Virus record (IMG/VR): IMGVR_UViG_2526164633_000022
Span: 1 to 63,168 of that record
DNA from: a virus
Lineage: Duplodnaviria; Heunggongvirae; Uroviricota; Caudoviricetes
Reading direction: 5' to 3' (one strand)
Length of the DNA: 63,168 nt
Below, piece after piece: positions 11,677 through 13,918 of this stretch. The notes under the pieces were generated by a model, which was not told the origin of the DNA, ran no database searches, and saw nothing but the letters and a program-made list of their open reading frames with translations. The position numbers and the translations under genes are program-made. The first letter of the stretch is position 1, and the number at the start of each line of letters is the position of its first letter.

Positions 11677-12750
11677 TCAAGCCTTAAGAGGCTTTGTGTA
11701 TGTTCGTGTAATCCAACCAGTAATAAACTCATCCCCTGATTTAACCTGCACGTAAAGCCATTGACGATCTTTCTTATCTAAAATAGCAACAATTGTGTTT
11801 TTGCCAATGCATTCAATCACTTCACTATTTAAAGAAGGGCCGACATGCAACCTTACGTTATCACCTGTTATAGCTCTAAAATTATTAAGATCCTCCCACT
11901 GAATATCTTTATTTTCTTGTGTTAGCTTTTGCTTAGATATTGGCTTATCCTCATTTAGAGATAGAAGATATGATTCCATCTTGTAAATTTGCGATAATGT
12001 CTTTTCTTTTGCATAATCAGTTATAGCGCCAAGCACCACTTGATAAAAAATCCACAGAAGGAAGATCTGAATAGGAGAAGGAAGCGCCTTAAATGAATCA
12101 AAAAACGTCGAACTAGATTTATTAAATCCTTTGTTTTGATGCTCACTTTCGGTATGCGCTGATTTTATAGAATCATTAGCATAAGCCTGCGCGATAGTAA
12201 CAAGCCCAAGCTCTACTACTTGCTCTAATAATACACTTCTTGTTTTATTATACTGCTTTATTACTTCTTTAATATCTTTGCTTATCTTAATTTTGTAATT
12301 TATATTAGAGTGTAATTCTTTAAATACCTCCTCCATATTATTTAAGCCAGCTATCTTATTAATGGCTTCTGAGTGTTTTCGTAACGGCATAGCCATTTCA
12401 GCTTGATTTTTAATTATTTGAATATGCTCATTTGCATCACTGGGAAAAGCCGCCTGATACTGTTTCTGTAAAAATACCATTTGTTCACGAAACTGGTGTG
12501 CAATTCTCGTAACTTTTGGTAAAGACTCAAGTTCTTTTCGAAAACAATCATTAATTAATTCTTGTTTTTTAACTGTTCCAAACTGTTTAACTAAACTCTT
12601 GTAAATATATTCTGAATTTAATAAACCACTTATCTTTTTATGCCTCACTCCTTTAATTTCATTTAAATAATCATAAAAGGCAGTGCCTTCAGCTTTATTA
12701 TTAGAGTTAAGCGAAATGTGTTTAATATCCTTCACTTTATTCACCGTCAT
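11677..12750 (-). CDS. Membrane protein with C-terminal SH3b-like domain (AT-rich cassette gene 3)
   Basis: 357 aa; ~20% GC locally; hydrophobic helix IQIFLLWIFYQVVLGAI; C-terminal GDNVRLHVGPSLNSEVIECIGKNTIVAILDKKDRQWLYVQVKSGDEFITGWI resembles bacterial SH3. Confidence 0.6.
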   Translation of the reverse strand: MTVNKVKDIKHISLNSNNKAEGTAFYDYLNEIKGVRHKKISGLLNSEYIYKSLVKQFGTVKKQELINDCFRKELESLPKVTRIAHQFREQMVFLQKQYQAAFPSDANEHIQIIKNQAEMAMPLRKHSEAINKIAGLNNMEEVFKELHSNINYKIKISKDIKEVIKQYNKTRSVLLEQVVELGLVTIAQAYANDSIKSAHTESEHQNKGFNKSSSTFFDSFKALPSPIQIFLLWIFYQVVLGAITDYAKEKTLSQIYKMESYLLSLNEDKPISKQKLTQENKDIQWEDLNNFRAITGDNVRLHVGPSLNSEVIECIGKNTIVAILDKKDRQWLYVQVKSGDEFITGWITRTYTKPLKA

Positions 12751-13243
12751 CTTGTTTTAAACACCCGTCATTTTTAGCTTCTGTATAAATACTGGAAATA
12801 CCATCCAGAGTGAATGATGTGATTCGACTCGAACCGATATATACATCTATGTTTTTTTCATTTGTAGATGACACTGCCTTCCAAAATGAATACCATTCCC
12901 TACGATTAGGAGCAGTGTTTTGCGTGCCAATATTAAAACTATCCGGGCCAACAATTAAAGTAATTACATCTGCTTTACGTGATATTGTGTCGCGTGTAGA
13001 AAAATCGGCATTCTCTTTTCCTCCGCTTACATACAAATTTCTTCCAGCGATATGATCTTCTGAACCTTCCCTTGCTCCAGCATCACAAGAAAAGTTAATT
13101 GTGTAACCATCGTCATTGGTTGCAGAGATTTCTCTCCACCCTTGCTCACCTCCTACCGTCCAAACGGTAGAACCTGCCATTGCTGATAATGGCAGAAAAG
13201 AGGACATTAATAAAAAGCTATACAATGACTTATACAATTTCAT
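12737..13243 (-). CDS. Secreted protein (AT-rich cassette gene 2)
   Basis: 168 aa; signal peptide MKLYKSLYSFLLMSSFLPLSAMA; stop overlaps next gene start by 14 nt. Confidence 0.6.
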   Translation of the reverse strand: MKLYKSLYSFLLMSSFLPLSAMAGSTVWTVGGEQGWREISATNDDGYTINFSCDAGAREGSEDHIAGRNLYVSGGKENADFSTRDTISRKADVITLIVGPDSFNIGTQNTAPNRREWYSFWKAVSSTNEKNIDVYIGSSRITSFTLDGISSIYTEAKNDGCLKQDDGE

Positions 13244-13331
13244 ATTTTTATCCTTTTGTTTTTAGATATTATAGGCATAGTCCATATTGTTAGATCCACT
13301 ATGCCCAGAGAATTTAATATTATTTATTAAA

Positions 13332-13823
13332 TTATGGGGCTACACCCGGCCCCCTAGCTCGTTCTTCAAGCGTACCCTGTACGTTTTGATGGCGCATTCC
13401 TGGGGCATTTCTTATTGAGTCAATGCCATTTCTTCCAACATCTTCTTTATTAACGGCATTGCTCGCCACCAGCACACCCCAGCTAGGGATAGCAAAATCA
13501 GGAGCGGTTTCGCATGCCTTTACCATATAATCGAAAGTGCTTCGATTGATCTCGTTTGCGTCGGGATTTAATAGGCGAGAATATTGATATTTAGCATTTT
13601 CGTTGGTTGCGACTTTATATAGTTCTTGCTGCACCATCGCTTCAGAAAGTTTAAGACGTTTCATATCTGACAGTAACTTCTTGCGCATGGATTCGTCTTG
13701 ACTGACAGCAAAGCCGTAAACGTGCCCAAGGTATTTCGTATAATCGGTACAAATCTCCTTCACGCTTGATGCTGCATTAACAGTCCCAGCCATAAATAAT
13801 AACGGTAGTAATAGTTTTCTCAT
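13332..13823 (-). CDS. Secreted protein with Sit-derived C-terminal motif (AT-rich cassette gene 1)
   Basis: Start taken at MRKLLLPLLFMAGTVNA signal peptide (track ORF 13332..13850); C-terminus PGMRHQNVQGTLEERARG matches Sit GMRREVVQGTLEERARG. Confidence 0.6.
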   Translation of the reverse strand: MRKLLLPLLFMAGTVNAASSVKEICTDYTKYLGHVYGFAVSQDESMRKKLLSDMKRLKLSEAMVQQELYKVATNENAKYQYSRLLNPDANEINRSTFDYMVKACETAPDFAIPSWGVLVASNAVNKEDVGRNGIDSIRNAPGMRHQNVQGTLEERARGPGVAP

Positions 13824-13918
13824 TATAACCTCACCTGCCTTATAACTCATTTAGGGTACATATTTTCGCCTTTAAAAAAAGAGGTTATTAGATCCAATTG
13901 TGCATTTATTAAACAAGC

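Follow-up and report, generated by a model that had tools for sequence, protein, structure and literature searches.

A segment of the Sit tape measure protein recurs in the C-terminal tail of a full-length SimA protein of a P1-like phage-plasmid

The simA-like gene of a P1-like phage-plasmid encodes a predicted secreted protein whose C-terminal tail carries a 17-residue motif in common with Sit, the tape measure protein of the same element. The motif is ancient, as judged from its occurrence in divergent relatives of both proteins, and it is conserved at the level of the peptide rather than of the DNA. A role of the SimA tail in the exclusion of related phages is proposed tentatively. The searchable literature, a scope outside which the 2004 P1 genome paper falls, holds no description of a SimA-Sit motif or of exclusion by sequence mimicry of the target, and both the shared, selected motif and the nature of P1 SimA as a truncated remnant appear to be undescribed.

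The match between SimA and Sit

The analysis covered a whole stretch of DNA of 63,168 nucleotides (the window), which is a P1-like phage-plasmid. The parts of sit and simA that bear on the match are as follows.

5982..9356, minus strand: sit, encoding the 1124-aa tape measure protein or structural injection transglycosylase; an ORF with a Pfam SLT domain and with P1 sit annotations under the tblastn matches
6816..7133, minus strand: SLT lytic transglycosylase domain of Sit, aa 742-847 (Pfam PF01464, E 2e-14, 53.4 bits against a cut-off of 21.3)
6492..6671, minus strand: conserved block of Sit, aa 896-955, TGLAFTPGDSPFEKGGLVDKIG..GVNDLVNKFMNGRGMRREVVQGTLEERARGKG, which includes motif copy 1 and in which invariant columns cluster among 17 homologues
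6498..6548, minus strand: core motif of Sit, copy 1, GMRREVVQGTLEERARG, aa 937-953, defined by alignment to SimA
6324..6428, minus strand: copy 2 of Sit, VASNSSYFDQLGAQMGIDGLFDKLRNSPGMRKNNV, aa 977-1011
13350..13400, minus strand: core shared motif of SimA, GMRHQNVQGTLEERARG, aa 151-167

The two cores are identical at 14 of 17 residues and at 37 of 51 nt (72.5%). A gapped BLASTP alignment extends the match to residues 131-171 of the SimA-like protein, p172, and 921-957 of Sit, with 21 of 41 positions identical and a pairwise E of 8e-8, while the second Sit copy aligns with p172 128-157 at 16 of 35 positions (E 0.002). The Smith-Waterman score is 90, against a mean of 38.2 (sd 5.3, maximum 65) for shuffled p172 sequences, and none of the 2000 shuffles reached 90 (Gumbel p ~3e-6). 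Independently, the PHROG profile of Sit (phrog_2533) matches p172 137-171 through its positions 928-963 of 1130, with an E of 3.2e-5.

The motif is also highly specific to these two proteins. A tblastn search of 50,697 phage records with the 47-aa tail found, at E <= 0.06, only SimA-like genes and the sit genes of P1-like phages, and a degenerate DNA pattern of the motif gave at least 118 matches in IMG/VR, every one of them in a Sit or SimA context. A homology search with the 145-aa motif region of Sit returned only 6 fragments and a scan of GTDB genomes only 4 loci. No third copy occurs within the window, and the sim region of P1 (L001) shows no match to the Sit C-terminus, SimC having no Sit-like motif. 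The original prediction, made from the sequence alone, had placed a match of 14 of 17 residues at the SimA C-terminus, with about 75% nucleotide similarity over some 50 nt and a second, degenerate copy in Sit. The residue match and the second copy hold, and the nucleotide figure was slightly high. Non-significant alignment statistics or a common low-complexity element would have undone that claim, and the shuffles and the phage-wide search speak against both.

p172 is not itself a tape measure protein. It has neither the length, the helical N-terminal two-thirds nor the SLT domain of that family, only its residues 137-171 match phrog_2533, and outside this segment the BLASTP comparison with Sit is at noise level.

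Sit was assigned as the tape measure protein of P1 (PMC9024508), and motif copy 1 lies ~90 residues downstream of its SLT domain. In six further lineages, whose Sit proteins have an overall identity of 50-58%, each Sit contains ..KF(M/L)(N/S)..GMR..(V/T)VQGTL(A/E)(E/D)RA(Y/R)G.G, and the residues KF....GMR...VQGTL.ERA.G.G are invariant in ~50%-identical homologues, even in those with a swapped type of SLT domain. Over 17 sequences, the core scores a mean column conservation of 0.93 and the block 896-955 one of 0.85, against 0.71 both for Sit as a whole and for its SLT domain. The motif block was also considered as the most conserved part of Sit and rejected as such, the blocks 212-251 and 1038-1077 scoring higher. 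Copy 2, which resembles the upstream half of the SimA tail, reaches a conservation of only 0.28 across lineages and lies inside a ~44-aa insertion found only in P1-type Sit and missing from D6-like Sit. In this insertion (window ~6300-6490, aa ~958-1020), the second GMR copy occurs in two allelic forms, LRNSPGMRKNN and LINARGMRSNN; the insertion may stem either from a duplication within sit or from simA.

Two further observations concern the SLT domain and its surroundings. Among close homologues of Sit, the domain (window 6816-7133) is of two distinct sequence types, GAFQITKGTRED... and GMFQFTSIARKE..., between conserved flanking blocks, which looks like domain swapping inside the tape measure. 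An AlphaFold2 model of Sit 701-1124 is reasonable for the SLT domain and of low confidence from fragment residue 234 on, core motif included; hence the model is uninformative on a docking of the motif to the SLT domain.

The full-length SimA protein and the sim cassette

The gene that encodes the motif tail stands in a cassette of three genes, with the following features.

13332..13850, minus strand: simA-like gene (p172); an ORF of 172 aa from its first ATG, a full-length member of the SimA family (phrog_3933)
13773..13823, minus strand: predicted Sec signal peptide MRKLLLPLLFMAGTVNA, read from the sequence, with cleavage after VNA and no lipobox cysteine
13461..13769, minus strand: helical globular domain of SimA, aa 28-130 (AlphaFold2), with the invariant C34 and C113
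13335..13469, minus strand: disordered C-terminal tail of SimA, aa 128-172, matching Sit (AlphaFold2 and alignment to Sit)
13341..13346, no strand: cassette-swap breakpoint, from blastn boundaries and protein comparison; the allele also occurs in cluster P0002 and ~14 more loci
12737..13243, minus strand: p168, predicted secreted YfjT-like protein; an ORF (phrog_3429, E 2e-71), 29% identical to the 158-aa protein of Ro157c2
11677..12750, minus strand: p357, third cassette gene; an ORF that overlaps the end of p168 by 14 nt (phrog_7086)

On both sides of the replaced segment, blastn gives 92-98% identity with phage P1 and with further members of the Punavirus phage-plasmids. The ORF occupies the position of P1 simA, divergent from c4/icd and upstream of pmgC-tub-pmgB-sit, and the cassette stands between c4/icd and pmgC in place of P1 simB-simC. 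The gene order of the SimA family, with c4/icd on one side and pmgC-tub-pmgB-sit on the other, is thereby present in the window and is equal in L003 and L005-L009; sit and simA lie ~7 kb apart on the same strand.

The protein p172 matches the SimA family profile with an E of 2e-114 over aa 10-171 and has both the signal peptide and the helical domain of the family. The "cassette protein" of the original prediction was rightly placed in a swappable cassette, but is no orphan, being specifically a full-length SimA. Over the first 50 residues, signal peptide included, its identity with P1 SimA (AAQ14125, 52 aa) is 94%, and over 161 aa its identity with a 215-aa protein of Ro157c2YLVW is 98%. The homologues of p172 form 23 clusters at 59-99% identity, and the SimA profile found 12 proteins among 1.84 billion representative proteins, all P1-like wherever the context is known. 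The SimA family is very small, and is known just as an annotation label, the P1 stub being described as a "putative superimmunity accessory function". The window allele is recurrent, with 153 member sequences in cluster P0002 and about 14 further IMG/VR or genome loci, and the whole cassette is carried by 34 PLSDB plasmids, where it is annotated as "simA domain protein". Short contigs (L014, DXHF01000172.1; L015, JAFAFU010000019.1) of metagenome-assembled genomes assigned to Candidatus Paenibacillus intestinavium and Bacillota bacterium also hold simA fragments with 100% identity, probably because DNA of E. coli P1-like plasmids was misbinned there or had contaminated them.

The length of 172 aa that had been predicted holds for the ORF from its first ATG. 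The ATG at 13850 has no Shine-Dalgarno sequence, while the ATG at 13823 is preceded by GGTGAGG (13835-13829), hence the true start is probably this second ATG and the protein of 163 aa. The 163-aa form agrees with the database cluster P0002 and with the Ro157c2YLVW annotation, and the annotation of P1 SimA probably begins 9 codons too early as well.

The DNA homology between the window and P1 breaks off at 13684, where the simB-simC cassette of P1 starts (blastn), so that P1 simA is a stub left after simB-simC replaced the remainder. P1 SimA (window 13684-13850; L001 3359-3517) corresponds to a truncated N-terminus, made of the signal peptide and ~25 residues, of a family of ~160-250 aa. It ends at ~50 residues, whereas SimA of the window is complete in its helical domain and extends into the Sit-like tail. 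On the other side, homology to the longer simA of the Ro157c2YLVW type ceases at 13344, immediately past the GPG codons that close the motif. There the window allele therefore ends in VAP-stop, whereas the Ro157c2YLVW protein runs on after ...ERARGPG with TNSPMGNLSPEELQEY....

Export of SimA to the periplasm is predicted from its sequence. A start at 13823 gives MRKLLLPLLFMAGTVNA followed by ASS at the cleavage site, and N25, A26, S28 and S29 are invariant across the family. AlphaFold2 with the family alignment modelled aa 28-130 confidently as an all-helical domain (pLDDT 93-96) and left the tail disordered from ~aa 131 onwards, with pLDDT <50 at residues 6-25, the region of the signal peptide, and in the tail at residues 142-162 and 166-172. 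C34 and C113, both invariant, would fit a periplasmic disulfide. The upstream half of the tail, VASNAVNKEDVGRNGIDSIRNAPGMRHQ, is conserved family-wide, and the invariant residues of the tail are K135, E136, D137, G139, N148, G151, R153 and Q155. A PTP-like phytase assignment for p172 (Pfam PF14566) was rejected, at 26.8 bits against a cut-off of 27, over profile positions 46-132 only and with the CX5R loop absent: C34 is followed by TDYTKY and C113 by ETAPDF, with R at +6 after neither cysteine.

The sim site of 84 loci yielded three main cassette alleles, namely the P1 stub plus simB and simC (~25), the Ro157 type (~25) and the window type (~14). P1-like plasmids have eight recognised hypervariable regions, of which the sim region is one (PMC9603915), and simA, simB and simC are dispensable for lytic growth (PMC10695390). 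simB and simC are missing from loci with the window-type simA allele, and sequence comparison found no homologue of SimC or SimB among the cassette proteins of the window; SimC, by which the P1 Sim system is recognised, is absent from the window. None of the three cassette proteins was matched by NCBIfam or PADLOC. A promoter and terminator scan around the simA-like gene found sites no more numerous than in shuffled controls. At the cassette junction, just 3′ of the simA stop codon, an 8-bp inverted repeat with a 16-nt loop, GGCATAGT (13305-13298) and ACTATGCC (13281-13274), was observed; the repeat (13274-13305) is not followed by a T-run and was not called by the terminator scan.

The partners of the window simA in the cassette are also envelope proteins. 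A secreted YfjT-like gene stands directly after every full-length simA examined, as p168 in the window, the 158-aa protein in Ro157c2 and proteins matching PF27224:YfjT in L003 and L005-L009, suggesting that SimA and the YfjT-like protein form a two-gene module. In E. coli K-12, yfjT belongs to prophage CP4-57. The product of the third gene, p357, carries a bacterial SH3 domain at its C-terminus (Pfam SH3_3 at 27.7 bits, the cut-off being 27) and one hydrophobic segment at ~aa 225-247, and was seen, among the 84 loci, only with the window-type simA allele. At most window-type loci, p357 is only ~50-60% identical to the copy of the window, hence p357 is itself diversifying.

Age, selection and modularity of the motif

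Degenerate codons encode 13 of the 14 identical core residues, and 8 of these 13 use different codons in simA and sit. The Nei-Gojobori comparison of the two cores gave a dN of 0.13 and a saturated dS of 2.7, which are rough numbers for such short segments, and the cognate simA-sit pairs of L003, L005 and L008 show the same dN/dS behaviour. A recent DNA transfer or gene conversion is excluded qualitatively, and these values point to purifying selection acting on the peptide in simA and sit alike. The recombination scar offered in the original prediction as another origin of the match is likewise unsupported, with these dN and dS values and with the motif present both in the most divergent SimA proteins (P0065, P0064) and in ~50%-identical Sit.

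Every SimA member keeps ...KED.G...N..GMR.Q, and alternative C-terminal modules start after GMR.Q. In type a, the module is the Sit-like.V.GTLE.RARG.G, as in the window, P0001, P0017 (NTQGALERRALG) and P0018 (KVEGTLESRARGNG), while type b has a Cys-containing module, PS....FK.C...C, in place of the Sit-like part. Since the most divergent members have the full motif (P0065, APGMRHQAVKGSMAERARGDG; P0064, APGMRHQKVEGSLMERARGPG, then the Cys module), the full motif is ancestral and type b a secondary loss. The QGTLEERARG half was lost in about half of the divergent SimA lineages, where only ..GMRxQ is kept, and the full motif is therefore inessential to the SimA family.

Some cognate pairs of SimA and Sit look alike. 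In L005 and in the L060/L143 lineage, both proteins have ..APGMRHQ where other Sit proteins have (G/S)RGMR, and in L003 and L008 both have FMN(S/G)RG(M/V)RH. A permutation test over 7 lineages gave no significant sign that the cognate motifs vary together (p = 0.14 when limited to the segment common to all, 0.28 with the whole motif), and mismatched pairs occur too, since both variants of Sit copy 2 are seen alongside the window-type SimA. Because the SimA tail is disordered and the Sit copy stands in low-confidence sequence, the motif behaves like a short linear motif, with a pLDDT <50 around both copies and with swapped C-terminal modules as variable flanks.

Possible roles of the SimA tail

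The reading that we favour, tentatively and with some reserve, is that the tail motif serves superinfection exclusion by periplasmic competition or decoy against incoming Sit, of which we infer both the exclusion phenotype and the competition step. More doubtful is the specific form in which SimA would be a periplasmic mimic of the tape measure, whose displayed Sit motif titrates a putative envelope partner needed for the entry of P1-like DNA, thus acting as a decoy and not by blocking. The Sec signal peptide would send SimA to the periplasm, where the mature protein would consist of a compact helical domain and a ~40-residue flexible tail showing the ..RNAPGMRHQNVQGTLEERARGPG motif. The C-terminal part of a tape measure stands at the baseplate end and exits first, and the SLT domain has to reach the murein; the motif ~90 residues further on should therefore be periplasmic during injection. 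As a relative injects its DNA, the C-terminal part of its Sit would enter the periplasm, and the Sit motif would have to engage a partner to complete the DNA-entry conduit. The partner could belong to the host envelope, or be a further Sit chain or a different ejected protein, and resident SimA would occupy the partner or co-assemble with Sit, thereby blocking entry.

The mimicry and competition reading is compatible with the predicted signal peptide, the disordered tail, the position in the sim locus and the Sit copy ~90 residues past the SLT domain. Several findings count against exclusion. The Sim phenotype of P1 is attributed by annotation to SimC, which is the sole protein with such a phenotype demonstrated by experiment and is missing from the window, and the SimA of P1 itself amounts to no more than a 52-aa stub. 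The non-significant test of cognate co-variation (p = 0.14 and 0.28) and the loss of half of the motif in several lineages weigh in the same direction. SimC shares its locus and its secretion with SimA of the window, but neither SimC nor SimB has sequence similarity to it. According to what is reported of the Dreiseikelmann papers of 1989-1990, Sim exclusion in P1 takes effect once adsorption has occurred but before the DNA is established.

HK97 gp15 and TP-J34 Ltp are prophage envelope proteins that block DNA entry, with escape mutations in ejection or tape measure proteins. Similarly, SieA of P22 is a prophage-encoded envelope protein that blocks DNA entry and is escaped by mutations in the ejection proteins gp16/gp20 (PMC10883804). 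SieA, gp15 and Ltp differ from SimA in being membrane or lipoprotein blockers, and sequence mimicry of the target is not reported for them. Imm of T4 was shown to bind the tape measure protein (bioRxiv 10.64898/2026.03.06.709160), so that exclusion proteins acting on a tape measure or on ejection proteins are established, with T4 Imm and P22 SieA as examples. Imm resembles SimA as proposed here in that a contractile-tailed phage encodes it as an exclusion factor, which targets the tape measure while the genome is being delivered; it differs in that no motif is common to Imm and the tape measure, and SimA for its part is predicted to be soluble and periplasmic. Spackle (Sp) of T4, a small, secreted and helical protein, inhibits the gp5 tail lysozyme in the periplasm and thereby counters the muralytic activity that an incoming tail brings, and SimA is likewise a small helical protein with predicted secretion. 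A search for fold similarity of SimA to solved periplasmic inhibitors of muralytic enzymes, Spackle-like or other, found none.

It is unlikely, though worth weighing, that the motif is instead a docking peptide for a general periplasmic factor (a chaperone such as FkpA/SurA, a protease or peptidoglycan) used by SimA and by Sit each for its own folding, stability or localisation, and that SimA has another envelope role, with no competition with Sit. Both motif copies lie in disordered sequence, type-b SimA retains only the GMRxQ half and cognate co-variation was not detected, all of which suit general docking, as does the assistance that periplasmic chaperones give to tape-measure-dependent entry in HK97. 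A peptide that docks to a general factor should however also turn up in further secreted proteins of phages or hosts, while in the collections searched the motif was found only in SimA and Sit of P1-like elements, and the gene stands in an exclusion locus. We consider similarly improbable that SimA binds incoming Sit directly, as an SLT inhibitor or a poison subunit, its tail copying a segment of intra- or inter-chain contact of Sit, by which SimA would join the assembly of Sit instead of contending for a third partner. The proximity of the Sit motif to the SLT domain points this way, together with the small, helical and secreted nature of SimA, which recalls T4 Spackle, and the direct binding of the tape measure by T4 Imm.

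The two remaining explanations deny the motif a function in SimA or a common origin with Sit. A neutral relic of an old sit-simA recombination or gene conversion would agree with the modular tail, in which the breakpoints between modules coincide precisely with the borders of the motif, behind GMRxQ and behind RARGPG, and with the hypervariability of the sim region in P1-like plasmids (PMC9603915). It is nevertheless a very improbable origin: synonymous sites are saturated, yet 14 of 17 residues are retained, and SimA lineages of 40-64% identity still carry the motif, a divergence over which a neutral relic of 17 residues would not last. Chance, for which the shortness of the match could be invoked, is refuted by a pairwise E of 8e-8, 0 of 2000 shuffles and a profile E of 3e-5, and by the return of the similarity in independent lineages, L003 among them, in which EFMNSRGMRHQKVEGTLESRARGNGV pairs with KFMNGRGMRQQVVQGTLAERAYGPGV.

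Phage P1 has long served as a model and is the prototype of a widespread kind of phage-plasmid. A motif of 17-25 residues that is under selection both in an injected tape measure and in a resident secreted protein offers a concrete and cheap experimental handle and, should SimA be a mimic, one by which the entry factor of P1 could be identified. If the favoured reading is right, exclusion would be aimed at the injection apparatus. If SimA acts as a decoy, tape-measure mimicry would join the known routes of prophage exclusion, and the locus would be explained as a hot spot of envelope-protein cassette swapping. Should the decoy fail, the motif would still mark a constrained segment in the C-terminal region of the tape measure.
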